From assembly GCA_041660605.1 (NCBI GenBank), contig JBAZWB010000002.1, positions 170,408 to 234,407 of the forward strand: a DNA stretch of 64,000 nucleotides, given 5' to 3'. Numbering within the stretch: position 1 is the stretch's first letter; the number at the start of each line of letters is the position of its first letter. The stretch comes from Patescibacteria group bacterium (GTDB taxonomy: Bacteria; Patescibacteriota; Patescibacteriia; UBA10025; JAHIVO01). A program made the position numbers and the translations under genes. Shown here piece after piece: positions 6,834 through 64,000 of this stretch. The notes beneath the pieces are model-generated. The model was not told where the DNA came from and made no database searches. It worked only from the letters and a program-made list of their open reading frames with translations.

Positions 6834-6854
6834 AAATCTATCTTCGGCTTCACT

Positions 6855-6912: not shown

Positions 6913-6924
6913 ATAAAAAACTCC

Positions 6925-9697: not shown

Positions 9698-9732
9698 ATT
9701 ACAAAATCTTATTTATTAACCCATGCCTGCTT

Positions 9733-9830: not shown

Positions 9831-9914
9831 CTGAAGGGGTACAAAATCGAGTATCCCGCTGACCCCTGAAGCTGAGCCTGCCGAAGCTGAAGGGGATAGC
9901 GGGAAAAAACTGCC

Positions 9915-11006: not shown

Positions 11007-11008
11007 AA

Positions 11009-18374: not shown

Positions 18375-18394
18375 ATAATTATTATTTAATATTT

Positions 18395-19744: not shown

Positions 19745-19761
19745 AGAGATGCTATTTTAAT

Positions 19762-22944: not shown

Positions 22945-22979
22945 GGGGAATAAATTGCTACTTTTTTAGTAATAGCTTC

Positions 22980-28900: not shown

Positions 28901-31900
28901 CTATGGGCATCTCGCGATAAGCCCGGCATCCGACAAATTCCGCCGGGCACTGGTCGCAGGAATCAGGATTATTAGGATCGCAATTATTAGGATCAGAAAT
29001 AATGCCGCTGACCTTTTGGTTTGAGGTCAGGGAAGTGTATAATTCGCAGCCAACCTCATTGGCTGAACAAAATAAAGCATACTCGCCGCAGGCCTGATTG
29101 TCGGACTGCGAATTTCCGGTACAAGAAAGGAAATCGGGGGCGATGCGCAAATTAGTTTTTGGGTTGTCCTCATAGGCGATATAATTGCTGGACGCGCCTT
29201 CTTGCACCATTATATCGTCGATGATCACATCGCAGGCGATATCATCTGGCCGGGTAATCAGAGGCACGATTCCCTGCATCATCCAGGCTGAACCCCATTG
29301 TCCGGTCGGTATGCTGGGATAAGTAATAGTATAAACATAACGCCGCCACTCATCCGAAACATTTATTGAGGACGGATGGACCTCTGAATTTGCGGCGTCA
29401 ATCGGGCGCATTAAATCAATGTCTAATTGACCGGCATTTCCCGTACAATCAGGATCATCCGCCGCTCTCTTGGCATACAAAGATAAAGTAAAAGTCCGGT
29501 GATCCGTCAGATATCCCGTGGAGACGATTGTCGGCGAACCGGATGACGTATCGCCTATATAGAGAATCGCAGAGTCGTTAGAGCCTGGGTACATTTTGAT
29601 CCGGGCGGCTGTCGAGCCTTCATACGCGTCTGAAACGGCCACCAGGCTGTCGCCACAGGCCGACCCGGCACAATTCTTATTATAGTTCCAGTCATCAAAT
29701 GAGTCAGGCAAAGCGGTATCTTTAATGCCGTCATCACCGGCTACGCCTTTGCCAAATTGTTCAAGTCCGCCATTATAAATCAAATTCGCTCCAGCGCCGT
29801 ACTGCCGGATCAGCTGAGTGCATCCTTCTGATGAGGCATCGCAGGCCGTAATGCTATTATTAAAACTGATTTTACCGCCGGTGCCCAGCATAGTCGGAGG
29901 TTCGCCGGTGCAGTTCCATTTTCCGGTGGCGGCATTCCAGTCCTGGCAGTACCAGCTGCAGCCGACATTTGAAGAATTGCAGCCGTCTGTGTTGGTGGTG
30001 CTGGTCAGATAAGCTACCTCATCGCCGGTGCTGTTGGCCAGGGACTGGCAGCTGTTATACTGGGATTCGCAAGACTCGCTGTTAAATTTCCAGATCGGCT
30101 TTTCCTCCACGCAGTAACCGAACTTTTTGCAGGTGCCGTCGTCATTCTCCGCCAGGCACATCTGTTCGTCAGCGCAGTAATTATCCTGGCGCTGCACCAT
30201 ATTATTGGCCACGTCCTTCAGATCTACGGTACCGTCTCCGTTTGTATCTTCGCTCCTGATCGCCTGCGTTGATACCACCTTTTCTCCCGATCCTTCGCGC
30301 TTACAGAAAATTTCCGGGGATTTCAGCACCCAGTTCGGATCCACCAACCGGTAGAACGGTGAGATAGGATTATCGTATTCAGCGATTAGATCACTAAGCG
30401 TATAGTCCTGTTTGGCATAATCGCGGATATATTTCGCGGCTAGTTCCCAGCCTACAGGAATAATCCGATATTTGCGTAAAATTACCAGACTTCTGTATGG
30501 ATAGCCGTTATAATACTCCGGCTGGGTGCCGTCGGAATAAAATCCAAAAATTTTATTACTATCATCTTTGGCATCCAATAATCCCTGGTCAATCGCCTGC
30601 TGTACTGTCAGTTCCTGCTCAATGGCCGTCTGAAGGCGGTTATCAATCACGCAGGTATCAGGCGTGGAGTTCTCCGTGTCCGGACAGCTGGCCAGAGTTG
30701 GCAGCACTTCCTCTGCTCCGCCGGTGGAATATTCAGTCTTTTGCAAATCAGAAAAAAGCAGCTTCGCGGCAGTAATCCCAGGCGAAGTTCCGCCAAAGAT
30801 ATCGGCAAATAAGCTGGTGGATGATTTTGTCCCGCCTTTTGAGGCAAAAGGATTCCAGCCCTGGTTAATGAGACGATCCAGAAGTTTACTGGCTAAAGTA
30901 TTAGTAAAAGTACCAACCGCGTCGGCGACCATTGATCCTGTTTGTACTAACGATTGGCTGATAGATTGATTGAACAAAACTCCCTGCGCCTGCTCGATAA
31001 ATTTAGCCGGTGTTTTATTTTCTTTGGTGACCGCGGTAGTGGCCGGCTCCATCTCTCCGGACAACGACTGCGTGAATTTTTTATTATCTTCCGCTTTAGC
31101 CGCTTCCTCGTCCGCTTTGCGCACTATTTCCAGATAAGCACCGATCTCCGTCGCTTCAGGATTGAAACTCTTGGAAAATTCGAAAAGGCGCTGCTTGGAA
31201 GTGGCATTTACATTATCAATTATTTCAGAGAGGGTGCATTTGGCGGAAACGTCCTGCGGTCCGCCAAAAGTTGCTTCCCTGGCCCAGGTCTGCAGTTTGA
31301 TCTTAGTGGTAATATCTTGTGGTTCGCACAGACTGAAATCCTTGATGCACTGCGGCGCACCGGTTCGCGGAGCGAACTCATAATTTTTATATTTTTCCGG
31401 TACCTGTCCTGACCCCTCCCATGAAGGGCAAGACTGATTTTTTCCGCATTCGAGCAAGATACAGCCGCGTGAGATACAAAACTGTTTGGCTTCCACGCTA
31501 CTGTCACATTCAGTAAAACAAGCACCCGATCCTTGTCCGAAGGCACAAGGAGAAGACGGAATGGCATTTTTTGGACAGAGCAACAGCGGCGCATAGCTCT
31601 TGCAGTCATTATCACTACCGCAAGATTGATAGTTATGACCCTGGCAGGTACCACTGGACCAGGAATTTGCCATACTATCCAGGAAATCGCCAGCTGCGGC
31701 ATCGGCGGTTTGTTTCAATAAAGTGGAAGGATTAGTGACAAAAAGCGGTTTCTGGCCTGGTTTGCCAGTGGCGATTTTTACCGCATAGTTATAAGCTAAA
31801 TTATTTAAGTAGTTCTTTAATATGTTTTTAAAAGCGACATCTGAGGCTGTCTTTATAGCCTTAGACACGGCTTCCATCAGCTTGGCGGCGGGATTAGCCA

Positions 31901-36360: not shown

Positions 36361-36467
36361 TACTCCTCTCCCCGCGGGAGAGGGACTAATAACACGAACC
36401 CTCAGGTAATTAATCAGGCATTCCTCTCCTTGAGGAAAGGAACTGAAGGTGAGGTGTTATTTACAAA
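36361..36467. repeat. copy A of a ~107-bp palindrome-containing repeat (REP/MITE-like). It overlaps the last 17 codons of the DUF559 gene
   Basis: About 80% identical to copy B at 36803-36918. It contains the hairpin-forming inverted repeats CTCTCCCCGCGGGAGAGGG and TTCCTCTCC..GGAAAGGAA and the shared tail GAAGGTGAGG..TTAT..ACAAA. Confidence 0.6.
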
Positions 36468-36824
36468 CCTGTATATTTCTTCCAATACACCATCAATATT
36501 TTCATATACTTCATTAGCCCAAACTCTGATAACCGAGTAACCGCGTCGCTTGAGATAAAAATCACGTTGCCTGTCTCGCTCTATTTGCTTGGGAAAATTA
36601 TGACCGCCACCATCAACTTCTAAAACCAATTTGTGCTCCATGGCACAGAAATCAGCAATATACGGCCCGATTGGGCACTGACGCCGAAATTTAATATTCA
36701 TGAATCTTCTATTCCTTAATAATGACCACATTATTGCTTCCGTCTGGGTTTGCCTTTTTCTAAGGCTACGAGCGATTTTTGTCATTTTTTTAGCCATTGA
36801 ATACCTCTCCTGGCCTCTCCCCAT
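36414..36824 (-). CDS. DUF559 domain protein (Vsr/restriction-endonuclease-like fold). The true start is probably Met10 at ~36797
   Basis: The DUF559 core is present in IMWSLLRNRRFMNIKFRRQCPIGPYIADFCAMEHKLVLEVDGGGH...RDRQRDFYLKRRGYSVIRVWANEV. The first 9 codons of the annotated ORF lie inside repeat copy B. Confidence 0.7.
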   Translation of the reverse strand: MGRGQERYSMAKKMTKIARSLRKRQTQTEAIMWSLLRNRRFMNIKFRRQCPIGPYIADFCAMEHKLVLEVDGGGHNFPKQIERDRQRDFYLKRRGYSVIRVWANEVYENIDGVLEEIYRFVNNTSPSVPFLKERNA

Positions 36825-36918
36825 GGGAGAGGGATTAATACATTCACCCTTGGGCTATTAATCAGTCCTTCCTCTCCCTCCGGGAGAGGAACCGAAGGTG
36901 AGGGGGTTATACTACAAA
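36803..36918. repeat. copy B of the ~107-bp palindrome-containing repeat. It begins exactly at the leuS stop codon and extends to the DUF559 start
   Basis: It contains CTCTCCCCATGGGAGAGGG and TTCCTCTCCCTCCGGGAGAGGAA inverted repeats. It is a direct repeat of copy A, and the pair brackets the DUF559 gene. Confidence 0.6.
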
Positions 36919-39900
36919 ATTTATTAATCGGCCTGGCACAAAAATCGTTTTTTTCGGCTGCTTGCCTCCCAGCCATTTTTTAATCTTTTCACTGGCCAGT
37001 GCCCTCTCCTGCGCCTCTGTTTCAGAAATTCCGGCTGGCACAGTAAACTGGTCGCGCACCCTGCCGTTCACCTGCACCACGAGGGTTATTTCTGCTTTAA
37101 CAATCAATTTCGGATCAAATTCTGGCCATTTTTCATTAAAAATACTCTTCTTATGACCTAACTTTTCCCACAATTCTTCGGCCAAATGCGGGGCAAAAGG
37201 CGATAAAAGCACTAAAAATGTTTCATATGCTTCACGTGGAACAATTTCCTCGGAAAACCATTCATTACTGGCCTCCATAAAATGGCTGACACAGGTGTTA
37301 AATTTAAAATTTTCAATATCATTAGTAATAAACTTAATCAGGGTATGCAATGATCTTTTCCCCTTATTAAGCTCGACATCGGCCACATTTTCACCGGCTT
37401 TATAAAGCCTATCTAAAAACCGGCGCACACCAATAATCCCCTGCATATTCCACGGCTTGGCGTCCTCAAACGGCCCCATGAACATTTCATACATGCGCAT
37501 GGTATCCGCGCCGTATTTTTCTATTACCTCGTCGGGATTAACGACGTTACCGCGCGACTTGGACATCTTTTGCCCGTCTTCTCCGAGGATTAATCCCTGA
37601 TTTTTTAATTTTTTAAACGGCTCATCTCCGCATTTCTCCGGCACCGCTTTGATATCAAATAAAAACTTGTAAATAAACCGCGCGTACAGCAGATGTAAAA
37701 CTGCGTGCTCTGCCCCGCCGATATATAGATTAACCGGCAGCCACTTCTTTAATTTCTCAGGATCAGCCAGTTGCTTATCATTATGCGCATCACAGTAGCG
37801 CAGGAAATACCAGTTTGACCCGGCCCATTGCGGCATGGTATTGGTCTCGCGTCTGGCCGGACCCCCGCACTGCGGACATTTGACGTTTACCCATTCTTTA
37901 ATATTGGCCAGCGGCGATTCGCCTGTGCCGGTGGGCTCGTATTTTTTTACGTCAGGAAGCAGTACCGGCAAATCTTTCTCCGGAACAGGCACCTGGCCGC
38001 ATATCTCACAATGTATGATCGGTATTGGTTCACCCCAATACCGTTGTCGGCTAAATAGCCAATCGCGTAGTTTGTAATTAATCGTAGCTTGAGCAACTGA
38101 TGAATTTGACGAGCTTTTCGGAAAGAATGGTAATATTTCCGGTAATGATGTCACACCTCCGGTAGATTCGCTGAAATGCGATTTACCTGGCATACAATGA
38201 ATCTCGGCTTCTGGAAGGTTTTCCTTATAATATGCCATGCTTTCGGGAGGAACGTATGGATCATTATCCGAGTGGATAATTATGAACCGTTTTGCCAGCG
38301 AGCGTATTTTTGGCCAATTAAAATTTTGGGCGCTGCTCATGTTCTTGACCGCGTCCCAATCGGCTTGGGGATACTTTTGCTTGAGTTGCGGCCAATATTG
38401 TAATGGATTTGTCGGCGCAACCAAAATAACCGTATCAACTTTTTTTTCTAATTGTTGTAGGTGAAATAAAATCGAAGCGCACCCTAGGCTATGCCCAACC
38501 AATACGGAATTTTCATTGATTCGCTGGTCGAACTGTCCAAGATACTCGTCCCATGAATTTAAAACCGGGTGGCCTGCGCCAGGCATAGTCGGGACTATCG
38601 TCTCCCAGCCGGCTTTATTAAGCTCCTCTTTCAGCCAAGGAAACCAATTTTCCCGTTTATGACCGCTGATCCCGTGAACGATAAGGCAGGCATTATGGAC
38701 CTGTTCTGTTTTGGAATTTAGCCACTCCACGATTTTTTTCCGGCCTTGTTCGCTGGAAATGCCGTTGAACTGCCCGGAATTAACCATCGTGCCGTCGCCG
38801 GTCCAGCATTGGCTCTCTAGATCCGCTTCTTTCACGCCCCAGGCAGACGCACTGCCCAGAGACGGATAGGTTTTCGGCATTACCGACGGGGGTTTGATGA
38901 CCTGGATAATTGGTAATTTAAACTTTTTGGCGAATTCAAAATCACGTTCGTCGTGAGCGGGGACAGCCATGATCGCTCCGGTGCCGTAAGTTGATAAAAC
39001 GTAATCCGCGATCCAGACCGGTATTTTCGCGTTATTAACGGGATTAATGGCGTAAGCGCCGGTGAACACCCCGGTTTTTTCCTTGGCTAAGTCTGTTCTT
39101 TCTAAATCAGACTTGGCGGCAGATTCTTTTTTGTATTTTTCCACAGCTTTAAATTGTTTCTCGGTCGTGATCAAATCAACCAGCTCGTGCTCTGGTGACA
39201 AAACCATATAGGTAGCACCAAACAACGTGTCAGGACGGGTAGTAAACACGGAGATAACCTTGAACTTAGAACTTAGAACTTCTGATAACTTACGACGCGG
39301 TTCTTTGTTCCCAGTCCAAAGTTCAAAGTTAACAATCGCTCCTTCCGACCGGCCAATCCAATTCCGTTGCAATGTTTTAATAGATTCCGGCCAGTCCAAA
39401 TCGTCCAAGCCGTGCAATAGCCGCTCAATGTATTTTTCATCGGTAATTTTCACCAGCCACTGCTTGATTTTCTTTTTCACCACCGGTGTGCCGCAACGCT
39501 CGCATTTGCCGTTAATTACCTCTTCATTAGCCAGACCGGTTTTGTCTTTTGGACACCAGTTAATGGGAGCGTAACTTTCATAAGCTAAGCCATGTTTGAA
39601 AAGCTGCAGAAAAATCCACTGCGTCCATTTATAATATTCTGGATCAGAGGTGATGACTTCACGTTTCCAGTCATAGGAAAAACCCAGGCTTTTTATCTGC
39701 CGGCGCATGTTATTAATATTTTTTGCGGTGGTAGTAGCTGGATGTGTACCGGTTTTGATGGCATAATTTTCTGCCGGCAGGCCAAAAGAATCAAAGCCCA
39801 TTGGGTGCAGGACATGATAACCCTTCATCCTATAAAACCGCGCGACAATGTCCGAAGCGGTATACCCCTCGGGGTGTCCGACATGCAAGCCCTGGGCGGA

Positions 39901-40047
39901 AGGATAGGGGAACATATCCAAAACATAAAATTTGGGAGACGAGCTGTTTTCTTTCGTGTCCCAAATTCCTTCCTGCTCCCATTGCTTCTGCCACTTTTTT
40001 TCTACCCGACTGCTGTCGTATTTTATATTCATAACTGATTGAATCAT
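36907..40047 (-). CDS. leuS: leucine--tRNA ligase (LeuRS) carrying an inserted alpha/beta-hydrolase domain (1046 aa)
   Basis: The HIGH motif is HVGHPEGY and the KMSKS motif is QKMSKSRGN. The CP1 editing domain is present ([19 protein letters not shown] ... [15 protein letters not shown]), as is the [19 protein letters not shown] segment. The protein is ~190 aa longer than typical bacterial LeuRS because of an insertion at aa ~450-640. Confidence 0.9.
38127..38700 (-). other. alpha/beta-hydrolase (YdeN/RBBP9-like serine hydrolase) domain embedded in LeuRS between the CP1 editing domain and the catalytic core
   Basis: The segment [14 protein letters not shown]...[13 protein letters not shown]...[12 protein letters not shown]...MPGKSHFSE has an HG oxyanion motif, the GHSLG nucleophile elbow, and Asp and His in the canonical triad order. 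It is in frame and flanked by LeuRS sequence on both sides. Confidence 0.75.
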
Positions 40048-42712: not shown

Positions 42713-43555
42713 CTATTTTTTCTGCGCTAAAACTTTTCTGATTTTTTCTATAATTTCATCAATAGTAAAATTTGATTTTATCAGATAATCATCGGCTCCC
42801 AAAGCTCTGCCTTTTTCAATATCCGCTTCCTGGCCTAAATTTGACAGTAAAATAACCGGCGTGCGGGCAATGGACATATTCGGATTGATCCTCACGCGTT
42901 TTAATATTTCGAAGCCATCAAGACCGGGAAGGATAATGTCCAGTAACACGACTTCCGGCCTTGTTTCAGTTATTTTTTCCAATCCGCCCGGACCGTCAAT
43001 AGCCGAAGTAACTCCAAAATTTTCCCGTTGCAGCTTGGTTATCAGCAAATCACGTAAAAATTGATCATCCTCAACCACCAAAACGTCAGCTTCTTTCGCT
43101 TTGCCCGAAGACACCGGTTTTACCATCGGCTTCGCCTCAACCTCGGCTTCCAATTCCTCGCCAAACTCACTTGATTGGCCCATTAACTTATTTACTTTGC
43201 TTATGACTTCTTCCGGCGTAAACTGTGCTTTTATAATATAATCCCTAGCCCCCAAATTTATAGCTTTATCAATTTCTACGGGCTGTCCGGAATTTGAAAT
43301 AATAATAACCGGAGGCATTTTATCCCGCCCATATTTTTCCTGCAATACGCCCAGTACCTCATAACCGTTCATTTTTGGCATGACAATATCCAATAAAATC
43401 AAATCCGGCTTCACTTTTTCAATAACATCCAGGCCTTTTTCCCCGTCCACGGCGGAAAAAACCTCATAATTCTCTTTATCAAGCTTTTTCTTCAGCACGT
43501 CAACAAGAATCTGCTCATCCTCAATTATTATTACTTTTCCTTTATTTTTTGCCAT
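42713..43555 (-). CDS. response regulator with two tandem receiver (REC) domains and no output domain
   Basis: REC1 is KVIIIEDEQ...DLILLDIVMPKMNGYEVL. REC2 is DVLVVEDDQ...VVLLDIILPGLDGFEIL. Both have the acidic pocket and the phospho-acceptor Asp. Confidence 0.8.
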   Translation of the reverse strand: MAKNKGKVIIIEDEQILVDVLKKKLDKENYEVFSAVDGEKGLDVIEKVKPDLILLDIVMPKMNGYEVLGVLQEKYGRDKMPPVIIISNSGQPVEIDKAINLGARDYIIKAQFTPEEVISKVNKLMGQSSEFGEELEAEVEAKPMVKPVSSGKAKEADVLVVEDDQFLRDLLITKLQRENFGVTSAIDGPGGLEKITETRPEVVLLDIILPGLDGFEILKRVRINPNMSIARTPVILLSNLGQEADIEKGRALGADDYLIKSNFTIDEIIEKIRKVLAQKK

Positions 43556-43582
43556 ATATTATTCTCTTAATTTTATTATACA

Positions 43583-44398
43583 CTATATTTTAGATTGAGT
43601 AACTTCCCCTTTTCTTTTATAAAGAATGCCGAAAAATATGATTAAAAAAGAAAACAGGGAAAATACTTCGGAAATGAAGGCAACCAGCGGAGTAGTGGCG
43701 ATATAATAGGTTAAAGCCGTGACAGTCAGCAGGGTCAGGCCGCTGCCGATAATTAACGAACGGGCGCGGACTATTTTTTCCTGCGAACGCCAGCCCTGCC
43801 GGAGAAAGAAAATCGCACTGGGGAAAAGCACTCCGCCAAAAATGATCAGACTGGAAATCCCCACCACCGGATTGATGTCCCAATTGATAATTCCCGTGAC
43901 GGAATTATAGGTAGGATACCCCAGATAGAAAATATTGAGCAAAGTGGCGATAGCGGAGAGAAAAATAACCACCCAGAAAGCGCGGGCGGCCCACTTTATA
44001 TTTATAAAAAACATGGTCACTTTTGAGAAATAAGCTATGGCAACGTAAAAGAAAGCATTGGCAATCATAAAACCAATGCCTATATAATAAGAATTATGCG
44101 GGGTAAAAATAAAAGGGAAAGAGAAAAAAATAAAAGAAAAAACCGTGGAAAAATATCCCTTAGAGAAATATAAAATCACCGGATTCCGGCCGCCGCCTTT
44201 TAAATAAGAACGATATAGTATCAGACTGCAAACACCGCAGATTATAGCGTTCGCTACATTAATAAAATTTGTAATGAATAAGGCCATATGTTTAAATGCT
44301 TTTAATAAACTTATCAAATTGCGTACCGGCCGAATATCTGCCCAACTCCACCGGCAGAGAAAAATAAAAAGTAGTGCCTTTGCCTTCCGTGCTTTCAA
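43583..44398 (-). CDS. polytopic membrane protein (about 235-270 aa). It probably starts at the internal Met at ~44287, just after the kinase stop
   Basis: Six to seven hydrophobic helices. The annotated ORF overlaps the kinase gene by ~100 nt, so a later start is likely. Confidence 0.45.
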   Translation of the reverse strand: MKARKAKALLFIFLCRWSWADIRPVRNLISLLKAFKHMALFITNFINVANAIICGVCSLILYRSYLKGGGRNPVILYFSKGYFSTVFSFIFFSFPFIFTPHNSYYIGIGFMIANAFFYVAIAYFSKVTMFFINIKWAARAFWVVIFLSAIATLLNIFYLGYPTYNSVTGIINWDINPVVGISSLIIFGGVLFPSAIFFLRQGWRSQEKIVRARSLIIGSGLTLLTVTALTYYIATTPLVAFISEVFSLFSFLIIFFGILYKRKGEVTQSKI

Positions 44399-45791
44399 AC
44401 CAGACAGTACCCTGATGATTTTCTACGATGCTTTTCACGATAAAAAGTCCAAGTCCGGAACCGTCGGTCTGCATGCGTATGACGTTATCTGCCCGAAAAA
44501 ATTTAGAAAAAATACGGCTTTGCTGGTAAGCAGGTATGCCCACACCGCCGTCAGCAATGCTGCAAATTACCTGATTTTCCTCATACAACATTGAGAGGAC
44601 GACCTTATTGCCTTTAGGCGTATATTTTATTGCGTTATCCAGCAAATTTTGCAGAACCAAGCGCATTTTTTGTGGATCAATATTGACCTTTGGCAGCGGT
44701 GATCTCGGTTTTTTATATTCAAACTTTATTGCTTTTTTCTTCACTACATTATACAGCTCCTGAACCACGCTTTCCACTACCTCCTCCAGGGACATATGAA
44801 TGAACCTGTATTGGAAGCGCCCCTCTTCAATCCGGGAAACATTCAGCAAGTCATTTATCAGCCCGATCATTCTCTCGTTAGTCTGGTACCCTTTGGCCAG
44901 CATTTCGCGCTGCTGGGGGTTTAACGGTCCCAGATCCCCGTCCAAAATCATGCGCAGCACCCACTTAGTGGCAGACAGAGGGGTTCTCATCTGATGGGAA
45001 GCGACCGAAATGAATTCGGTTTTCATCTGGTCGATCTCTTTTAAGCGCCTGTTCAGTTTTGAATAAACCTTATTCAGCCGGATTAATTCCTGATTCGCTT
45101 TCAATAACTCGCTTTCTACTGTGCTCAGGCTTCTGACCACATATCCGCTGCGATAAGTACTGATGCCCATCAGCCAGAGCATAGTGAATGAAGCGCCAAA
45201 AATATATGGCACATTCTGATATAAATTATCTTTAATAATGAATATCGCGTTGTGCGGCAGGATGCCGTAAAATTCCAGGATTATTACGGCGACAAACATT
45301 GAACCGCCGAATATCAAATTTAACGGAGCAGCGATAGAGCTGAAATGCACGTTGGTGCCGACTAACTGCAAAAGATATAGCGGCAAGAAAATACTTTCAA
45401 TTCCGCCGGTGGCATGGACGATCAAAGTAATGACGATCATATCCAGAAAAACACCGATGTATGGCCAAAATCTCGGGTAATTCACCGTTCTGAATACCAG
45501 GCCGGAAGTTAAATTATAAATAAAAGCAATAGTCACGGCAATCAGAATGCCAAAAAGGTCAAACTGAAAACCCGCCTCATATGAGATGAGGGAGATCAAA
45601 GCCACGACGGTAATCATTATATACCGCACGGCCACTGACCAGCGCATGCGCTTTAGTCTTTCCTCCGCTCCTATCGTCACCATATTCTTGCGCAAAGCGG
45701 TTATTTCCGCCTCCTCTTCGCTGCTTTTTTTATCCACCTCCTGGTCTTCGGAGTTATTTTTTTCCGATAGTATCGGACTGTTACCTTCCAT
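44292..45791 (-). CDS. sensor histidine kinase with an N-terminal multi-TM sensor domain
   Basis: The HisKA H-box is ISVASHQMRTPLS. The HATPase_c motifs are LLDNAIKYTP (N-box), DGGVGIP (G1) and GSGLGLFIVKSIV (G2). There are about 6 TM helices N-terminally. Confidence 0.85.
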   Translation of the reverse strand: MEGNSPILSEKNNSEDQEVDKKSSEEEAEITALRKNMVTIGAEERLKRMRWSVAVRYIMITVVALISLISYEAGFQFDLFGILIAVTIAFIYNLTSGLVFRTVNYPRFWPYIGVFLDMIVITLIVHATGGIESIFLPLYLLQLVGTNVHFSSIAAPLNLIFGGSMFVAVIILEFYGILPHNAIFIIKDNLYQNVPYIFGASFTMLWLMGISTYRSGYVVRSLSTVESELLKANQELIRLNKVYSKLNRRLKEIDQMKTEFISVASHQMRTPLSATKWVLRMILDGDLGPLNPQQREMLAKGYQTNERMIGLINDLLNVSRIEEGRFQYRFIHMSLEEVVESVVQELYNVVKKKAIKFEYKKPRSPLPKVNIDPQKMRLVLQNLLDNAIKYTPKGNKVVLSMLYEENQVICSIADGGVGIPAYQQSRIFSKFFRADNVIRMQTDGSGLGLFIVKSIVENHQGTVWFESTEGKGTTFYFSLPVELGRYSAGTQFDKFIKSI

Positions 45792-49592: not shown

Positions 49593-49632
49593 AAAGCCGC
49601 ATTTACACTGATCATCAGGAATCTGCGGCTTT
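49593..49632. terminator. bidirectional hairpin (AAGCCGCA-22 nt-TGCGGCTT) between the convergent small-protein gene and the pseudouridine synthase gene
   Basis: An 8-bp perfect stem followed by UUUAUUUUAAU on the + strand. It overlaps the stop codon of the minus-strand gene. Confidence 0.35.
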
Positions 49633-50434
49633 ATTTTAATACTTCACTGCGGCTGATTATTTTAAAACCGCCAGACGGCAATCCGCCCAGCCGGTAATTA
49701 CCCTCGCTGACTCTGGTCAGGGAAACGATGTTTGCATTGACGGAGCCAAACATTCTCCTGATCTGCCTTTTCCAGCCTTGGTGCAAAGTAATAGTATAAA
49801 TATTTCCGCCGGATTTCTGCAGGGTATCGGCTTTGGCCAGGCCTTCTTCAAGTTCAACGCCATTTTTTAATTTTTGAATTGTTTCCGCACTCAGCGGCCG
49901 GCTGGTTCTGGCTTCGTATCTTTTCTCCTGTTCAAACTTCGGATGCGTCAGGCGATAAATCAAATCACCGTCGTCGGATAAAATTAAAAGCCCCTCAGAA
50001 TCTTTGTCCAGACGGCCGGCAATTTTCAGGTGGCGGAATTTTTCCGGCAATAAATCGAATATTGATTTTTCATTGTCATAATGCGCGTGCGTGCAGACAT
50101 AACCGCGCGGTTTATGAAAGGCCAGGTAAATAAAATTATCTTTAACCTGGCACAACTGCCCGTCAATAAAAACCCGGTCTTTCTCCGGATCAACCTCCAT
50201 GCCCAGCTGACGGACAATGGAATTATTAACCCGCACGCGGCCATGCTGGATTAGCTCATCGGCTTTTCGCCGCGAAGCCTGTCCGGAAAGCGAGATATAT
50301 TTATTTATTCTCATGACTACAGTATAACAAAAAAAGGACAATCGGTAAGGACTGCCCTTCATTGACGAAAAAACATTGATCGAAGAATTATTCAGAGAAT
50401 TGGAACAGGAATCCCCTGTCCCGTAGCTTGCCAA
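49631..50434 (-). CDS. rRNA pseudouridine synthase, RsuA/RluB family (S4 domain plus catalytic domain). The likely true start is Met42 at ~50313
   Basis: The S4-like N-terminus is MRINKYISLSGQASRRKADELIQHGRVRVN. The catalytic Asp motif is AGRLDKDSEGLLILSDDG. Confidence 0.8.
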   Translation of the reverse strand: MASYGTGDSCSNSLNNSSINVFSSMKGSPYRLSFFCYTVVMRINKYISLSGQASRRKADELIQHGRVRVNNSIVRQLGMEVDPEKDRVFIDGQLCQVKDNFIYLAFHKPRGYVCTHAHYDNEKSIFDLLPEKFRHLKIAGRLDKDSEGLLILSDDGDLIYRLTHPKFEQEKRYEARTSRPLSAETIQKLKNGVELEEGLAKADTLQKSGGNIYTITLHQGWKRQIRRMFGSVNANIVSLTRVSEGNYRLGGLPSGGFKIISRSEVLK

Positions 50435-50918
50435 TCCATTCGGTGACCAGCGTGCTAAGTCCGCTTCTGATTAAATCGTATTTAGAAGAAGCGAGTTCCG
50501 CATGATCTAAAAGGTTAGCGCAATAAAGAAGAAGATGATTGCTCCCGGGTATGCAGAGTTTCCCCTTATAGGTCGCAAGACACTGGGTTTCGGCGAATGC
50601 TCCTTTCTTATACGGAGTTTTGCCCGTAAGAGACTGCTCGACATAGCCGGTAAGTTCTTCTTTTGATCCCTTTTTGCTAGTCAGAAAAGTCTGCGCATAC
50701 AATTCACAACATACGAAGTCGCTGTCTGACCGCATCTGATACGAAGCGCGAATTGCAGTGACATGCACTCCATCAGTAGTGTGCAGTACGAGAACTTCTA
50801 CGCGATCGAGATTTGCAGAAGTAGACAATTGGCTCTGCGACCGAACGATGACGTTCCCATCGACTTCCATTACGTACTTGAGCAGCTTGTCTAGATCGCT
50901 ATTTACTTGAGCTTTCAT
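50388..50918 (-). CDS. hypothetical protein (176 aa). GC content is locally higher than in neighbouring genes
   Basis: ORF only. No motif recognised. Confidence 0.4.
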   Translation of the reverse strand: MKAQVNSDLDKLLKYVMEVDGNVIVRSQSQLSTSANLDRVEVLVLHTTDGVHVTAIRASYQMRSDSDFVCCELYAQTFLTSKKGSKEELTGYVEQSLTGKTPYKKGAFAETQCLATYKGKLCIPGSNHLLLYCANLLDHAELASSKYDLIRSGLSTLVTEWIGKLRDRGFLFQFSE

Positions 50919-51099
50919 GGTACCTCCTTATCAGCTCAAATGTTTCACATTTTAAGCAATTAGTGACAATGATCGAATGTCTAAAATTAACACAGGCCAT
51001 TAACGCTGTCAATGGCTTGTATACCAAACTGTCCCAGTACCGTTGCGCTCATACTCAATAAAGCTGTGGGTAGTGTAATTTATTTATTTATTTTCCTAG

Positions 51100-52362
51100 C
51101 TATAATTTTACGACAATAGCTGCCATATCATCATACTGTTTCAACCGGGGATATTTCCAGCACTCAGGATCTGATTTTTCCAGATCACGTATTGTCTGCC
51201 TTACCATATTTAATCCCCCTTGGCGGAACAATTCCACCATTTCAAAAAAATCTTCAGACTCTTCGGGATCTTCTTTTGGTATTAAAAAGCCGTCGGTAAA
51301 AAGAATAATATTTTTTACGCCTTTAACGCTTATTTCCCCTTTTTGGATGAAGCTTATCGCTCGATTATCGCCATTCAGAGCGCCATATTTGATATTAGTC
51401 TCCATCCTGACCTTCCTGTTTTGCTCCCGTAAATGCTGGCGAATATTCTTAGTCTTTTTTTGGGCAAGCGCTTTCCACATTTTTAACGTTTCCAGATCAT
51501 GGTTATGGTATTCACCCAGCAATTTGACAGAACCGTCCTGATTCAAAACCAGCAAATTACAATCTCCAATCTTTATCCATTCTGCGGTTTCGTCTTTAAT
51601 GCGCACTGCTACCAGCGAGGCGCTCCAGCGATTTACAGTGTTTGAAACATCAATATTATTTTTAATCATTGCTTCGGCTATAGCCGTATTGGCATTGGTT
51701 ACGGTTTCTATCAATGTTCCCTGGCCACCGGTAATTTTTTCTCTAACTACGGAAGCGGCTAAATAACCACCCGTCTTGCCCGAACTATCATGGTAGCCAT
51801 TCAGGCTAGAAGCGCCGTCAATTACGCAGAATAAATTTTCTTTCACTACCAGCCTGTCCTCATTCATTTCACCCGATCCCTTTTCTGAAACGCAGCTGCT
51901 CTGAAATTGCTGGCTCTTATAAATCTTTAAAATCAGCCAGATACCGCCGGCTAAAATAAAAATATCAGCTAGATTAAAGACCGGCCAAGAGGTTAAGACT
52001 ATCATGTCAACCACATACCCGTGCTGCAGACGGTCTAATAAATTTGAAAAAGCTCCGATGATTATCAAACTAATAGATAAAACGACCATCAATTCCTTTT
52101 TTTGTACGGCTTTGATTAATATTATAAACAAAACCAGTAAAATAAAAGTTACGACGGCTATCAAAACCGGACTGGGTATAGGGACGCTATACGCAATTCC
52201 CTGGTTTCGCTCCAAAACAAATCCGGTTACTTTTGGAATTAAAAAAACGCCCTCACGCGGCAGATTATTCAAGGCCAGCCATTTGGTCAACCGGTCAATT
52301 AAAAACAAACCAGCTATCAAAAGCGGTAGCCACCAATAGATCTTATTTTTTAATTTATCCAT
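51100..52362 (-). CDS. lspA: fusion protein: N-terminal lipoprotein signal peptidase (signal peptidase II, LspA) plus a C-terminal PP2C-family Ser/Thr phosphatase domain (420 aa)
   Basis: The LspA part covers aa 1-150. It has four TM helices and the conserved segments RNQGIAYS and VVDMI...FNLADIFILAG. The PP2C part covers aa ~165-420, with the motifs NEDR, VIDGASS, GDCNLLVL, LFTDGF and the terminal DDMAAIVVKL. Confidence 0.75.
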   Translation of the reverse strand: MDKLKNKIYWWLPLLIAGLFLIDRLTKWLALNNLPREGVFLIPKVTGFVLERNQGIAYSVPIPSPVLIAVVTFILLVLFIILIKAVQKKELMVVLSISLIIIGAFSNLLDRLQHGYVVDMIVLTSWPVFNLADIFILAGGIWLILKIYKSQQFQSSCVSEKGSGEMNEDRLVVKENLFCVIDGASSLNGYHDSSGKTGGYLAASVVREKITGGQGTLIETVTNANTAIAEAMIKNNIDVSNTVNRWSASLVAVRIKDETAEWIKIGDCNLLVLNQDGSVKLLGEYHNHDLETLKMWKALAQKKTKNIRQHLREQNRKVRMETNIKYGALNGDNRAISFIQKGEISVKGVKNIILFTDGFLIPKEDPEESEDFFEMVELFRQGGLNMVRQTIRDLEKSDPECWKYPRLKQYDDMAAIVVKL

Positions 52363-52371: not shown

Positions 52372-52728
52372 CTAGATGCCGTGGCACTTCAGGCAATGCC
52401 TGGCTTCTGGATTTGCCAATAAGCGCTCAGCATTTATTTCGTTTCCGCATTTCTCGCAAAGGCCGTATTTGCCTTTTTCAATCTTCTGAAGCGCTATCTC
52501 AATTTTCTCCAGGTTAGTCTCCAGGTTTCTTTCCAGCGAAATATTATCCTGGTACTGCGCGACCTCAACGGCGCTGTCTTCTTCCTTATCGCCCATTTCT
52601 TCCCATTTAGCTTGAACCCGATCTTTATCAAATGTCTTTTCTTTAGTCATCTCCTCAAGCTGGGCAACCAGCTGCTGCTTTCTCTCGAGAAGTTTGCCTT
52701 TTACTTGCTCTACGATCTCTTTTTCCAT
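52372..52728 (-). CDS. DksA/TraR-family C4 zinc-finger protein (118 aa)
   Basis: An N-terminal coiled coil plus CEKCGNEINAERLLANPEARHCLKC, which is the four-Cys signature of the family. Confidence 0.7.
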   Translation of the reverse strand: MEKEIVEQVKGKLLERKQQLVAQLEEMTKEKTFDKDRVQAKWEEMGDKEEDSAVEVAQYQDNISLERNLETNLEKIEIALQKIEKGKYGLCEKCGNEINAERLLANPEARHCLKCHGI

Positions 52729-52865
52729 AAAACTGGCTTAATAATTAAGGCATTAACAAATGCTGATAGCATTATATACTAAACAATTATTAGAGGCAAA
52801 TACCATCCCCCTCGCCCGAAATCGGACGAGGGGGATGTATTAAAATTCGCTAATAACTGTGGTTT

Positions 52866-55800
52866 TTACAGGGCTGGCATGCTACCAATATTGATGCCGC
52901 CGCGGAATCCCGTGTGGTGGGTAAAGAACTGGGCAATAACCTCACCGGCGTAGTTGAAGGCACGCACGTGCGGGCCCATACCTTTGCCAGGAGCAGTGAT
53001 AATGTCACTCGTGCCATCCTGGTTCAAATCCGCCAGTAATGAAGTGAAATTGCCGCGTAAGCTCTTTGAGTAGGCGAAGAACTGGGAAACCACCTCACCC
53101 TGGGTATTAAATACCCGGATGTGCGGACCAGCACCGCTTTCCGGTGAAGCGACAATCTCGTTCTCACCGTCACCGCTGACATCGCCAACTGAAACGTTCA
53201 GGCCGCCGCGGAAAGTCGTAGCATAGGCAAAGAACCGGCCTACCAGCGTGCCGTTGCCGTTAAACATAGCCACCTGCGGACCCAGTCCCGGGCCAGGCGT
53301 AACTATGACGTCTGCCGTCCCGTCTGCGTCAATGTCGCCGGTTGTTACATGGTAGCCTCCGCGAATCGAACTGGCATAAGCCATGAATTGTGAAACAACA
53401 GTGCCGTCATGGTCAAACACCCGGACTTGCGGGCCGCCGGCTGAAGCCGGTACCACGATGATCTCATTCACGCCATCGCCATCAACATCGCCGGTAGTCA
53501 AATTAACACCACCGCGGAAAGTAGTCGGGAAGGCGAAGAATTGCGATTCTACTTCTCCCTGGCCATTGAATATCCTGATCTGCGGACCAACGCCCGGCAT
53601 GGTAGTAACGATTATTTCATCTGTGCCGTCGCCATCAACATCGCTGACAGCTAAATTCAGGCCAGCGCGGATGTTTGTCGGGAAGGCGAAGAATTGGCCG
53701 ATGACCTGGCCGTGCATATTGAATATCCTGATCTGCGGACCAGCACCGGCTCCTGGCGCCACCACTATTTCATTTTCACCATCGCCATTAACATCACCGA
53801 CTACCGCCTGGATGCCCATGCGCAGGCTGGACGAATAAGCGAAGAAATTCACGAGCATGTTACCGTCGCCATCCCAGACAGTAACCTGCGGACCGCCGCC
53901 GCTGACCGGCGTAGCAATCACGTCAGCCGGACCGCCAGCAGAGGCTGAAGCGCCAAAGGTAGCTCCGGTGGTTAAAGCAAACTGGGTAAAGTGATCAACC
54001 TGCAAACATGCCTGACTATCGGTAACCACGGCTGTATCGGGAACCTGCCAGGCACCGGCGGTAGAATTCCAATATTTCGGGAAAACATCTTCAGCAGTCA
54101 AACCGACTACCCCCAGATATTCCTCCGGCAAAGGCATGCAAATCTGCACGCTAGAATCAAATTGCTCAACCAATTCAGTGTTAGAATCACTCTGTTTTGT
54201 TACTTCTAAATCCCAGGCAAAAGTCAAAGGCTTATCCGAATCAGTAAACATTAAATCGGTAGCCGGAGTAGCCCGGAAAGTATAGGTACTGTCATCAGAA
54301 CCAGCGGCATTAGCCGGCATCATTATGGTCGTACCGTCAGGCAGAGTAAAATTATTCTGTTGTGTGGCGGTGAATGTCTGGCTGAATGACTCTGGTATAT
54401 TAAATAATGCCTGTTTCATGACAAACGATTTGGATTTATCGTCGCCGGTTACTACTGATATCTGCTGCTCTTCTGACCGATAAAATTTATTCGTATCTGG
54501 GTTATATGTATCGCAGCCAATCCACCAGGAACCGGTAGTCAGCGGAATGCGCGCGTTGCCGCCCATCATTTCGCGACCGGAATTCCCGCCCTCCGGATTC
54601 CAGGCATGACAAAAGCCCATATTAGGCACGGTGCCGTCTTCTAATGTGCCTGAAGCCGTAACATATGCATCAGCATTGCGGTACTTCATCACAATCCCGG
54701 TAGCGGGAGTACCAGAGGTAACCGTAATCTCAACTCCTTCAGGCGACATATAGTCGGACTCAAATTCCGGGGGCAAACCTGAATTGAGCATGTATGTTCC
54801 GGACACTAGGTTTAACCTGAATGTACCGTCGCCCCTTGATTCTGTTCCGCTGCGTAAAACCTTTCCGCCCGCAAAATCGCCTTTCATCTTGCCTTCCATC
54901 TGCTTATAATTATCTGCGTTGATCCAGACATGCGGCATCGGGTTGCCACTGGGGTCCTGAACTACTCCTTCGACATAAGTATCAGCCCTGTATATTGTTA
55001 CAATTTTTACAACTTCAGTACTGGCTGGCACTGTCACCGCTTCTGAGGGCTCCGGCTGCGTAGCCACAAATTGGGAATTGCCCTCTTGGGCGCCAAAAAT
55101 ATTGATTTGGACAACAAAGGCATCATTAGTGCCTCCCAATAAGCTGATCCGGTAACTGCCGTCATCATTTATAATGCCCGGATGATATTGCATGTTGCCA
55201 CCCATACCAACAGCCGCTGCTTCAGCCTGTCCGGCCAATCCGGTAACAATATTTCCGTTCTGGTCTTTTACCCAGCCTATAATCGCTGAATCATTGTCTA
55301 CTAATGTTAACTTAATATCCTTGGTTTCTCCCTTGCCAACAGTTAATTCAACTTCATCAAGCAAAGAACGGTTTCCTTCTGGCGGCATATTCATACCGCA
55401 GACAAAATCGTATCCGCCTAATAAAGGAATGCTAGCTGAACCTCTGTCAACACCCGCGCCGAATTCCGATCCTGGGCCAAAACCGCCGCCTGATTTGCGG
55501 CAATATGCCCAGCCATAAGTATCGGTAACGGCATTGCCATTATTATCTACAATTTTTACGTTAACGCGTGCATCGGCTAGCTGGACGTTAATGACAATCC
55601 CGGTTACTGTTTGACCTTCTGTGACTAAAATCGAATCTGACTTTTGATTAGCGGAAATATAGTTACCACCTTCATTTCTGCCCTGGTCAAGCTGCAACTG
55701 CCAATCGCCTGCCTGAACATACATGGTAAAAGTACCATCCGCTTCGGTCTGTACATTACCCCAGCCTTGTCCGTTTCTCACCCAACCGTTAAGCCAGACA

Positions 55801-57206
55801 CTAGGCACACCATTGCCATCCGTATCCATAACTTTACCTTTAATAGCCGATGTTTTTTCTTTCATTACTACAGTAAGCGTCTTTGTCTGATCTTCACCGA
55901 CGCGTACTGAGATTTCATCAGAATAATATTTGGCTAGATCTGGATTCATGTTATCCGGGTAAACTGTCACTTTATAATCTCCGGCCTTAACATTGGCCGA
56001 AAAAGATCCCTGGTTTATGCCACTTCCATTCCCTCCCTGATTGCCTGATTTGATGTCTACGTAACCGCCAGTAAAAGGAGTTACTCCATCCGGAAAATAT
56101 ACCGTGCCTCTTATCCTGGCGTTGGTTTGCTGTACAGTAAATGTAATATCTTCGGACTCAATTGTGCTATTATTTGCAAAATCAACCATCGTTGCCTGTG
56201 AATTATACGACCAATCGCAATCTTTCTGCTGTTGCAGCTCCTGATCCCAACCGCAATTAACTCCGACATCCCAGCTGCCGCCGGACATGGACAGAAGCGC
56301 TTCACCATTGCTGTCCGTATCAGTGCCTACATGGCTGCCGCCGTCTCTTTTGTTTGCCCAGACATTAGCTGTAGTTACCGGGTCGCCATTTTCATATACC
56401 ACAGTGGCATTAATTGTTTTTGATGCTGTTATCAAGGTTATATTCTTGGTAATGGTCGAACCATTATAGACAAAACTTACCGTATCCGGAGAAATCACGC
56501 CGGGGGTACTGCCTGGCCAGGCATCTATCATATAGGTTGTGCCTGATACAAGCGTGCCATTCTGGGTGACTTTAGGAATAACATACCAGCCGTTTTGATC
56601 AACACCAGTACCATAATTAAAATTAAAATCCTGTGTCCTGACATTGACGCCGACACCATGCTCACTAGAAGCTGGATTGCCATCAGGCATCTTTACCTGG
56701 CCTTTTACCGCAATATTCCCCAGAAAAATCGGGTTATCAGCAAATGTATTTTCACCAGGGCCTTCTGACCCAGGCAAGCGCACCTCAATGCGCATACTAT
56801 ACATGCCAGAATTGGCTGGATTAAGCACGTCGCTTAATACAATTGTGCTAATACCTGCGGAAATGGAGCTGGACAATTGGACAGTAAAGCTATCATTCCA
56901 TGGCCAAATATCACCTGCTAAGTTAATTGTCGCATTCTCAAAGTTATGACCACAAGGAGTTTCTGGCGGACAATAGCCATTAAAATCCGAACGGAAGGTG
57001 AGCTGCGATCCTATCGGAATAAGCTGGCTAAAGGCTACTTCCAGAGTATAGTCCGTCGTGGCGCTAAGTGTAGTACTGTAGCCACTATCCACTGACATTC
57101 CTAATACAAGTGGGGTGACAGCTTGCACTGGCGCGCTTAAACTAAAAAAAGACACTAGCGCTAGGCCAGCTATCATGCTAACTGACCAAAATAATTTTTT
57201 ACGCAT
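52866..57206 (-). CDS. large secreted cell-surface protein (1446 aa) with a C-terminal FG-GAP beta-propeller (six or more repeats) and N-terminal Ig/carboxypeptidase-regulatory-like beta domains
   Basis: The signal peptide is MRKKLFWSVSMIAGLALVSFFSLSAPVQA. The unit GDVNGDGENEIVVAPGAGAGPQIRIFN..G..I.QFFA repeats about 7 times in the last ~360 aa. Confidence 0.7.
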   Translation of the reverse strand: MRKKLFWSVSMIAGLALVSFFSLSAPVQAVTPLVLGMSVDSGYSTTLSATTDYTLEVAFSQLIPIGSQLTFRSDFNGYCPPETPCGHNFENATINLAGDIWPWNDSFTVQLSSSISAGISTIVLSDVLNPANSGMYSMRIEVRLPGSEGPGENTFADNPIFLGNIAVKGQVKMPDGNPASSEHGVGVNVRTQDFNFNYGTGVDQNGWYVIPKVTQNGTLVSGTTYMIDAWPGSTPGVISPDTVSFVYNGSTITKNITLITASKTINATVVYENGDPVTTANVWANKRDGGSHVGTDTDSNGEALLSMSGGSWDVGVNCGWDQELQQQKDCDWSYNSQATMVDFANNSTIESEDITFTVQQTNARIRGTVYFPDGVTPFTGGYVDIKSGNQGGNGSGINQGSFSANVKAGDYKVTVYPDNMNPDLAKYYSDEISVRVGEDQTKTLTVVMKEKTSAIKGKVMDTDGNGVPSVWLNGWVRNGQGWGNVQTEADGTFTMYVQAGDWQLQLDQGRNEGGNYISANQKSDSILVTEGQTVTGIVINVQLADARVNVKIVDNNGNAVTDTYGWAYCRKSGGGFGPGSEFGAGVDRGSASIPLLGGYDFVCGMNMPPEGNRSLLDEVELTVGKGETKDIKLTLVDNDSAIIGWVKDQNGNIVTGLAGQAEAAAVGMGGNMQYHPGIINDDGSYRISLLGGTNDAFVVQINIFGAQEGNSQFVATQPEPSEAVTVPASTEVVKIVTIYRADTYVEGVVQDPSGNPMPHVWINADNYKQMEGKMKGDFAGGKVLRSGTESRGDGTFRLNLVSGTYMLNSGLPPEFESDYMSPEGVEITVTSGTPATGIVMKYRNADAYVTASGTLEDGTVPNMGFCHAWNPEGGNSGREMMGGNARIPLTTGSWWIGCDTYNPDTNKFYRSEEQQISVVTGDDKSKSFVMKQALFNIPESFSQTFTATQQNNFTLPDGTTIMMPANAAGSDDSTYTFRATPATDLMFTDSDKPLTFAWDLEVTKQSDSNTELVEQFDSSVQICMPLPEEYLGVVGLTAEDVFPKYWNSTAGAWQVPDTAVVTDSQACLQVDHFTQFALTTGATFGASASAGGPADVIATPVSGGGPQVTVWDGDGNMLVNFFAYSSSLRMGIQAVVGDVNGDGENEIVVAPGAGAGPQIRIFNMHGQVIGQFFAFPTNIRAGLNLAVSDVDGDGTDEIIVTTMPGVGPQIRIFNGQGEVESQFFAFPTTFRGGVNLTTGDVDGDGVNEIIVVPASAGGPQVRVFDHDGTVVSQFMAYASSIRGGYHVTTGDIDADGTADVIVTPGPGLGPQVAMFNGNGTLVGRFFAYATTFRGGLNVSVGDVSGDGENEIVASPESGAGPHIRVFNTQGEVVSQFFAYSKSLRGNFTSLLADLNQDGTSDIITAPGKGMGPHVRAFNYAGEVIAQFFTHHTGFRGGINIGSMPAL

Positions 57207-63526: not shown

Positions 63527-63560
63527 AAAAAACAGTTCATCTTTTATTGAACTGTTTTTT
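63527..63560 (+). terminator. rho-independent terminator after the TrmB-family gene
   Basis: AAAAAACAGUUCA-ucuuuuau-UGAACUGUUUUUU gives a perfect 9-bp stem with flanking A and U tracts, so it is potentially bidirectional. Confidence 0.55.
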
Positions 63561-63635
63561 GGTGGACCTCAGGGGGATCGAACCCCTTACCTCTTCCATG
63601 CCATGGAAGCGCTCTACCAATTGAGCTAGAGGCCC
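63560..63635 (-). tRNA. tRNA-Ala (anticodon GGC), CCA encoded
   Basis: The reverse complement folds as a canonical cloverleaf: GGGCCUC / GCUC-AAUUGGU-AGAGC / CUUCC-AUGGCAU-GGAAG / AGGUA / AGGGG-UUCGAUC-CCCCU / GAGGUCC-A-CCA. It has the G3:U70 Ala identity pair. Confidence 0.85.
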
Positions 63636-63787
63636 TTATACTTTTTTACTAACCTATGAATTTTATCTTATTAGCCTGTCTAGTCAAGTACGTTGTTGGA
63701 ATTTCTTAAAAGTATTGCGCTTCTTGTATTTCAATGTTCCACGTGGAACGTTTTTAGCGAATCATGATTTTTCAGTGTAAGTTTCTG

Positions 63788-63868
63788 GTGGACCGTGCCG
63801 GAATCGAACCGGCGACCTCTGCAATGCGAATGCAGCGCCCCGCCTGCCATCGCCAATTGACCTAGGGA
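63788..63868 (-). other. tRNA-like element or probable tRNA-Ala(CGC)-derived pseudogene. The anticodon arm, T arm, U70 acceptor strand and CCA are intact, but the 5' half is aberrant
   Basis: The reverse complement reads ...CUGCA-UUCGCAU-UGCAG AGGUC GCCGG-UUCGAUU-CCGGC ACGGUCC-A-CCA. No canonical 5' acceptor or D arm can be paired with it. The only 5' strand with a G3:U70 pair is GGGGCGC, directly abutting the anticodon stem, which would give a D-arm-less minihelix. Confidence 0.35.
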
Positions 63869-63902
63869 GAATCTAATTTCCGTCTGAGTCCCGCTTTAAT
63901 TA

Positions 63903-63975
63903 TGGACCAAAGGGGAGTCGAACCCCTGACCTCCGCAATGCGAATGCGGCGCTCTACCAACTGAGCTATTGGCCC
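63903..63975 (-). tRNA. tRNA-Ala (anticodon CGC), CCA not encoded
   Basis: GGGCCAA / GCUC-AGUUGGU-AGAGC / CCGCA-UUCGCAU-UGCGG / AGGUC / AGGGG-UUCGACU-CCCCU / UUGGUCC-A. The G3:U70 pair is present. The gene is flanked by a 14-nt perfect inverted repeat (CCCGCTTTAATTAT / ATAATTAAAGCGGG). Confidence 0.85.
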
Positions 63976-64000
63976 ATAATTAAAGCGGGAAAAGTAATCA

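Follow-up and report, generated by a model that had tools for sequence, protein, structure and literature searches.

Signal peptidase II (LspA) is essential in many bacteria, serves as an antibiotic target and is almost always a minimal single-domain protein. The gene described here departs from that pattern. It lies in a stretch of 64,000 nucleotides from an uncultured member of the Patescibacteria (GenBank assembly GCA_041660605.1, contig JBAZWB010000002.1, positions 170,408 to 234,407), called the window below, and encodes an LspA that continues in frame into a PPM/PP2C-fold phosphatase domain. The LspA–PP2C architecture is confirmed as real and is apparently unique to a single lineage. An earlier note, made from the sequence alone, had described these two domains and called their combination unusual. 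Pfam recovers both (Peptidase_A8 and PP2C_2), every motif quoted for them is found where the note placed it, and no second example appeared in the searches described below. The note had also proposed that the fusion couples lipoprotein maturation to Ser/Thr phospho-signalling, a claim that fares less well and is taken up in the last section.

The fused gene and its junction

The fusion is a single open reading frame (ORF), and its parts are as follows (coordinates are those of the window; aa, amino acids):

51100..52362, minus strand: whole LspA–PP2C fusion ORF, 420 aa (ATG at 52360-52362, TAG at 51100-51102)
51907..52362, minus strand: LspA (signal peptidase II, Peptidase_A8) half, residues 1-152, with helices at residues 2-33, 64-87, 91-114 and 131-150 in the structure model
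52006-52008 and 51964-51966, minus strand: predicted catalytic Asp119 and Asp133 of LspA, from alignment to solved LspAs
51904..51912, minus strand: junction Q151-Q152-F153 (CAG CAA TTT), from homologue alignment, codons and the structure model
51103..51906, minus strand: PPM/PP2C-fold domain, residues 153-420, from PF13672, homologues and the model
51856-51861, 51814-51819 and 51562-51564, minus strand: PP2C motif residues E168/D169, D182/G183 and D267
51289-51294 and 51127-51132, minus strand: PP2C motif residues D357/G358 and D411/D412
51871-51873, minus strand: Gly164, at the position of the classical phosphate-binding Arg

Both domain matches clear their Pfam cut-offs: Peptidase_A8 (PF01252) covers residues 16-147 at 95.4 bits (cut-off 25), and PP2C_2 (PF13672) covers residues 163-375 at 40.6 bits (cut-off 24). 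In the structure model the last LspA helix stops at residue 150 and the first PP2C strand runs from residue 154. Q151-Q152-F153 is the end of the LspA tail plus the first residue matching the start Met of standalone PP2C homologues, and a whole LspA and a whole phosphatase stand on either side of a connector of about 3 residues. The Logan gene call for the same gene is 406 aa rather than 420 aa, which reflects the use of different gene callers. The start that gives 420 aa is probably correct, because the N-terminus of the fusion matches its closest LspA homologues from residue 1 onward.

A merger of two genes by frameshift is ruled out. The LspA and PP2C domains lie in one frame, and three-frame translation finds the two alternative frames closed across the junction, so that an indel origin of the fusion is impossible. 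An identical 420-aa protein occurs twice at NCBI (MFA6098917.1 and MFA6496489.1, both entered as ‘MAG: signal peptidase II [Patescibacteria group bacterium]’, on contigs of up to 960 kb), and the Logan assembly of SRR6484324 (P0001) is 100% identical to the window across 15,423 nt. Codon preference (0.095 in the PP2C half, 0.100 in the LspA half and 0.100 in the neighbouring rsuA gene) and GC content at third codon positions (0.42 in the PP2C half, 0.43 in the LspA half) are host-like, which speaks against both a chimeric join and very recent transfer.

The two halves of the protein

The earlier note took the first half to be a normal LspA, and comparison with solved structures bears this out. 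The lspA equivalog model TIGR00077 is passed marginally (74.7 against 73.95), and phmmer matches residues 9-152 to the Pseudomonas aeruginosa and Staphylococcus aureus LspA structures at about 1e-11. In the phmmer alignments to 9emz, 5dir and 6ryo, D119 (in VVDM) and D133 (in FNLAD) fall on the catalytic dyad, which is Asp118/Asp136 in S. aureus and D124/D143 in P. aeruginosa (PMC6952399). The S. aureus structure paper names 14 highly conserved residues around the active site (PMC6952399), and all 14 are kept in the fusion (D23, K27, N53, G55, G103, N107, D110, R111, V117, D119, F129, N130, A132 and D133). The model has the fold of four transmembrane (TM) helices with the beta-cradle. The C-terminal residues of S. 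aureus LspA reach into the cytoplasm (PMC6952399), and in the LspA half the N-terminus, the TM2-3 loop and the C-terminal end are rich in Lys, consistent with an N-in/C-in topology; both agree with the note's placement of the phosphatase on the cytoplasmic side. The closest homologues (59-64% identity) are ordinary Patescibacteria proteins of 145-182 aa. Judged by these residues, the LspA half looks complete and catalytically competent. A second standalone lspA, which the note had advised looking for, is absent from the 64-kb window, and the fusion is probably the only LspA of its host.

Standalone LspAs (MEROPS A8; 5dir, 6ryo/6ryp, 9emz) share with this half the four TM helices, the 14 residues including the Asp dyad, and cytoplasmic termini. 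A normal LspA is 145-190 aa long and ends a few residues past TM4, whereas the fusion goes on into a 268-residue enzyme domain. LspA also carries cytoplasmic C-terminal extensions elsewhere: in P0026 and P0027 it is followed by 130-150 residues. Unlike the PP2C domain, these extensions are non-enzymatic; that of P0026 is a Cys4 zinc-ribbon-like segment with disorder and that of P0027 a Pro/Ala-rich low-complexity tail.

The second half has the alpha-beta-beta-alpha sandwich fold of the PPM family. Its model has a predicted local distance difference test (pLDDT) score of 95-98, it scores 266 bits against its homologues, and its best structural matches are, by a clear margin, bona fide bacterial Ser/Thr phosphatases. 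It is not an Stp1 equivalog, since the NCBIfam Stp1/IreP model reaches only 17.3 bits against a cut-off of 230; a profile of its subfamily found no match among Protein Data Bank sequences. Residues 153-420 can be aligned over their full length with at least 19 standalone homologues, each about 270 aa long and 35-48% identical, in which the start Met falls on F153. Their alignment has 30 invariant columns, including E168/D169, D182/G183, D267, D357/G358 and D411/D412, and the fusion keeps them all. The PP2C segment belongs to a divergent PF13672 subfamily of about 270 aa (GSGxxNED ... YPR[FY]KxxDD), usually without the classical phosphate-binding Arg. Motif counts within the subfamily are 93/109 for NED, 90/109 for a spacing of 13 between this Asp and the DG, 118/125 for xTDG and 124/125 for the terminal DD. 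The missing Arg marks the YPR[FY]KxxDD subfamily as atypical among PPMs; the PP2C half is an intact-looking PPM domain.

The sequence of Mycobacterium tuberculosis PstP used for comparison is that of 2cm1_A, which a PstP fragment matched with 100% identity over 239 residues. The PP2C half is only 16-18% identical to PstP. An hhalign alignment, weak in score, places N167-E168-D169 on N23-E24-D25, D182-G183 on D38-G39 and D267 on D118; its register agrees with the fold match, and it stops at residue 283. PstP D38 and D229 are Mn2+ ligands and R20 binds phosphate (PMC3052367). The metal-binding Asp residues, which the earlier note had singled out for checking, have counterparts or candidate counterparts in the fusion. 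The N-terminal metal-ligand motifs are both present (motif 1, xED, and motif 2, DG, 13 residues on). The candidates for the C-terminal motifs 8 (xxDG) and 11 (D[ND]) are LFTDGF (D357/G358), which follows the strand at 349-355, and D411/D412, which precede the last strand at 413-419.

The subfamily is scattered over bacteria of the Candidate Phyla Radiation (CPR), DPANN archaea and Desulfobacterota. It was found in 392 genome loci, the best 80 of which belong to DPANN archaea, several CPR phyla and Desulfobacterota and reach at most 47% identity. Its standalone members (P0002-P0025, L009-L088) resemble the PP2C half in length, invariant residues and identity across the domain, and differ in being soluble: no TM segment was found in any other member, so that membrane tethering is specific to the LspA–PP2C fusion. 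Only one other fusion was seen, a 454-aa protein (P0192) with an N-terminal NUDIX domain, and in three Paceibacterota loci the PP2C gene is followed directly by a NUDIX gene (L006-L008, at about 4887-5489). This NUDIX link raises the possibility that the subfamily consists of something other than classical protein phosphatases, a weak lead drawn from few loci. Clustering of the ORFs of 82 loci gave no kinase and no robust cross-phylum partner among the neighbours; in Desulfobacterota the neighbours are glycosyltransferase, FemAB-like and ABC-transporter genes. One apparent cross-phylum neighbour, cluster 8, consists of proteins of very different lengths and was not taken as evidence of shared function.

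Membrane-anchored PPM phosphatases are known in bacteria, among them M. tuberculosis PstP and Bacillus subtilis SpoIIE, the latter with ten N-terminal TM segments (PMC12088040). In both, a non-enzymatic TM anchor or sensor is joined to the catalytic domain, with a linker or regulatory domain before it. In the fusion, by contrast, a complete enzyme serves as the anchor, joined to the phosphatase by a connector of about 3 residues.

The lspA locus and the rest of the window

The genes and sites around the fusion are these:

52372..52728, minus strand: 118-aa gene of the DksA/TraR zinc-finger type, separated by 9 nt from the fusion ORF that follows it (Pfam zf-dskA_traR)
52771..52799, minus strand: sigma-70-like promoter match TTGCCT-17-TATAAT (10/12) upstream of the dksA-like gene, a consensus match only
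50388..50918, minus strand: orphan ORF of 176 aa (orf176) that follows the fusion and has a strong Shine-Dalgarno sequence, AAGGAGG
49631..50434, minus strand: S4 plus pseudouridine synthase (RsuA/RluB-like) gene, a conserved downstream marker of the lspA locus

The fusion sits at the ancestral lspA locus, as judged from gene order in relatives. Four syntenic contigs of relatives (L089-L093) carry, at 50-75% amino-acid identity, a giant FG-GAP gene, the dksA-like gene, lspA, the S4/pseudouridine synthase gene and ComM. The dksA-like gene, whose yteA/DksA-like NCBIfam matches are below cut-off, is the conserved upstream partner of lspA in these contigs (65-68% identity), and standalone lspA loci share both flanking genes with the fusion. 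The order dksA-like, lspA, pseudouridine synthase resembles ylyA-lspA-rluD of B. subtilis. Beyond the fusion the shared gene order resumes with the RsuA-like gene and ComM, so a simple chimeric misjoin is ruled out; a chimeric assembly is likewise rejected on the synteny of both flanks, the host-like codon usage and the identical separate deposits. The true start of the RsuA-like gene is probably internal (243 aa in the Logan call, 226 aa in relatives).

What follows lspA differs among these genomes. The lspA genes of the relatives are unfused (153-162 aa, their products 59-64% identical to the LspA half) and are followed by a gene for a protein of 240-248 aa (L089 2084-2806, L090 5529-6257, L092 5525-6271). 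A signal peptide and a Cys in a lipobox-like context (VIAC, GFSC) make this protein a putative lipoprotein and a probable LspA substrate; it is unrelated to PP2C or orf176, and its gene is absent from the window. The PP2C half and orf176 fill its slot, which makes the position downstream of lspA a variable one. The earlier note had thought conservation of the fusion worth checking. Only one sequence has it; at the same locus its nearest syntenic relatives encode LspA on its own and carry no PP2C gene. A fusion of an already conserved gene pair is ruled out as well, since no lspA lies near the PP2C gene in 87 loci and an unrelated gene follows lspA in the relatives.

No Pfam or NCBIfam match was found for orf176, nor any homologue in the fetched loci, and its codon preference is worse than that of its neighbours. 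On either side of it lies a copy of an AT-rich direct repeat (42 nt, 71% identity), at 50295-50336 (after the orf176 stop) and 51078-51119 (after the fusion stop). This repeat was the sole candidate for a mobile-element footprint around an inserted block, and it is too weak for interpretation. No terminator-like site lies directly after the fusion gene. The pattern of promoter and terminator sites, consensus matches only, is compatible with an operon of the dksA-like gene and lspA::PP2C, perhaps with orf176.

Directly upstream of the dksA-like gene is a 1446-aa surface-type protein with FG-GAP and CarboxypepD_reg domains (52866-57206, minus strand), 51-75% identical in relatives. About 6 kb from the fusion on its other side, 42713-45791 (minus strand) encodes a HisKA/HATPase_c histidine kinase (499 aa), a 271-aa protein without a Pfam match and a 280-aa protein with two receivers and no output domain; this histidine kinase, with its double-receiver regulator, is the only kinase among the scanned window ORFs.

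Another unusual fusion of the same genome is a leucyl-tRNA synthetase of 1046 aa (36907-40047, minus strand), in which an alpha/beta-hydrolase (Ser_hydrolase PF06821, 70 bits, residues 455-639) is inserted just past the editing domain. Its gene adjoins one for a DUF559/very-short-patch-repair-like endonuclease domain protein (36414-36824, minus strand, 122.8 bits). The stretch 16674-32057 (minus strand) encodes a series of very large proteins that lack Pfam annotation (566, 449 and 1060 aa) and then an ORF of 3025 aa. From 1001 to 16530 (minus strand) run ten consecutive same-strand paralogues of 358-521 aa, each with a C-terminal PEP-utilizers mobile (phosphohistidine swivel) domain (PF00391, 83-91 bits) and an N-terminal region of 280-440 aa without a Pfam match. 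The array is interrupted in places, by an ORF of 195 aa and by a Y1 transposase of IS200-like type (6270-6833), and an incomplete ORF where the window begins is a possible eleventh copy. Three tandem tRNA-Ala genes, with anticodons GGC, CGC and CGC, lie at 63560-63976 (minus strand).

Origin and possible role of the fusion

The explanation favored here, and judged more likely than not, is a genuine in-frame fusion in one lineage of uncultured Patescibacteria, giving a bifunctional membrane protein that combines housekeeping LspA with a membrane-restricted, active PPM domain. As an architecture it is a new combination of two known modules. In the proposed course of events, a gene for a normally soluble PPM/PP2C-fold phosphatase of about 270 aa would have come to lie immediately on the 3' side of housekeeping lspA, at the ancestral locus of the latter; lspA would then have lost its stop codon and the phosphatase gene its start codon. 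The product would be a four-helix inner-membrane aspartyl protease, still cleaving diacylglyceryl-prolipoproteins at the outer leaflet, whose cytoplasmic C-terminal end would run through about 3 residues into a metal-dependent phosphatase held against the inner membrane face. Both halves are inferred to be active. By analogy with the TM segments of PstP and SpoIIE, LspA would serve the phosphatase mainly as a membrane anchor, limiting it to membrane-proximal substrates, with no obligatory mechanistic link between the two activities.

Several observations weigh against this explanation. The fusion has no second instance: in a search of 5.8 billion clusters the sole entry with both Pfam domains was P0001, itself this very sequence; in an exhaustive search of 1.84 billion representatives each of the top 150 hits matches one half only, and weak LspA fusions to other PPM subfamilies may rank lower; a scan of Joint Genome Institute metagenomes gave no second fusion and no closer relative; and 87 other loci with the PP2C gene, the best 80 of the 392 among them, have no LspA-like sequence within 4 kb of it. 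The LspA–PPM fusion was likewise not found in a 2025 survey of 57,520 PF13672 proteins or its supplements, nor LspA as a PPM-domain anchor in the literature. Because the fusion is a singleton, there is no evolutionary evidence of selection for the fused state. Among the scanned window ORFs there is no Ser/Thr (Hanks) kinase or FHA gene. Motifs 8 (PstP CSDGLS 189-194) and 11 (PstP D229) are assigned by motif and topology only. The classical phosphate-binding Arg, expected five residues before the motif-1 Asp (PstP R20, human PP2Calpha R33), is absent: PstP Arg20 corresponds to Gly164, with Glu165 at -4. Across the subfamily this position is Gly in 62% of members and Arg or Lys in 10%. The absence makes the substrate class uncertain. 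It does not make the domain a pseudo-phosphatase, since the PstP R20G mutant retains about 40% activity (PMC3052367).

Four other explanations compete with this one. That the fusion is real with one half inert, LspA being an anchor only beside another housekeeping lspA or the PP2C half a decaying passenger or pseudo-phosphatase, is unlikely, although it ranks first among the four. It would fit a singleton with no sign of selection and with the Arg missing, and the search for a second lspA covered 64 kb of a genome of roughly 1 Mb. Yet 14/14 conserved LspA residues and 30/30 invariant PP2C columns are kept, the locus is the ancestral one, the score against homologues and the model of the PP2C half are those of an intact domain, and the missing Arg characterises the subfamily as a whole and is no sign of decay in this copy. 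The functional coupling advanced by the earlier note, in which control would run, in either direction, between the phosphatase domain and lipoprotein processing, is now considered quite improbable. The short connector would hold the phosphatase at the cytoplasmic face of LspA, both halves look catalytically intact, and the fused copy, at the ancestral locus, is probably the only LspA; were it the sole LspA of a reduced CPR genome, the domain might conceivably act on a cytoplasmic loop of LspA or Lgt, on Sec components or on prolipoprotein N-termini. Against coupling, neither the fusion nor an lspA-PP2C adjacency is conserved in any other genome searched, the rest of the subfamily is soluble and is never beside lspA in the loci inspected, the window ORFs scanned hold no Ser/Thr kinase or FHA gene, the Arg is absent, and no literature was found that ties LspA to phosphorylation.

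Slightly less probable again is a C-terminal domain that is a PPM-fold hydrolase not acting on phosphoserine or phosphothreonine, with another modification, a small phospho-metabolite or a nucleotide derivative as its target at the membrane. The structural matches to bona fide Ser/Thr phosphatases speak against it, and both the NUDIX link, found in few loci, and the lack of a conserved cross-phylum neighbour give it little to build on. Related to the action on LspA, Lgt or Sec considered above is a variant, hinted at by the NUDIX link, in which all members of the YPR[FY]KxxDD subfamily would be PPM-fold hydrolases with some non-protein or non-phosphoryl substrate and the one in the fusion would have been recruited to the membrane; even counted jointly, the two are improbable. 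Least probable of all is an artefact or non-fixed variant, in which lspA and a standalone PP2C gene lost their separating stop through a base error or a minority allele. Q151 (CAG), Q152 (CAA) and Q154 (CAG) are each a single substitution from TAG or TAA, the fusion is unique, and the NCBI deposits and the Logan assembly may have reads or samples in common, which leaves a small residual risk and counts against the favored explanation too. An indel is excluded, however, by the shared frame. Two genes would also need a start codon, but F153 is TTT and the sole nearby in-frame ATG, M166, lies beyond the conserved first PP2C strand. The same sequence recurs in separate assemblies and deposits, and consensus substitution errors are rare in short-read assemblies.

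If the PPM domain did act on a substrate of the lipoprotein or secretion pathway, the fusion would provide the first case of direct phospho-control over lipoprotein maturation, and coupling would add an unexplored regulatory layer to lipoprotein biogenesis; current evidence gives this no support. With the favored explanation, a genuine fusion of an LspA anchor and a membrane-restricted phosphatase, a natural LspA bearing a folded 30-kDa cytoplasmic enzyme indicates that the scaffold tolerates large C-terminal cargo, which would be useful for protein engineering and structural work. The analysis also delimits a widespread, uncharacterised and patchily distributed PPM subfamily (GSGxxNED ... YPR[FY]KxxDD), and the fusion itself is a further case of CPR bacteria combining functions in fused genes.

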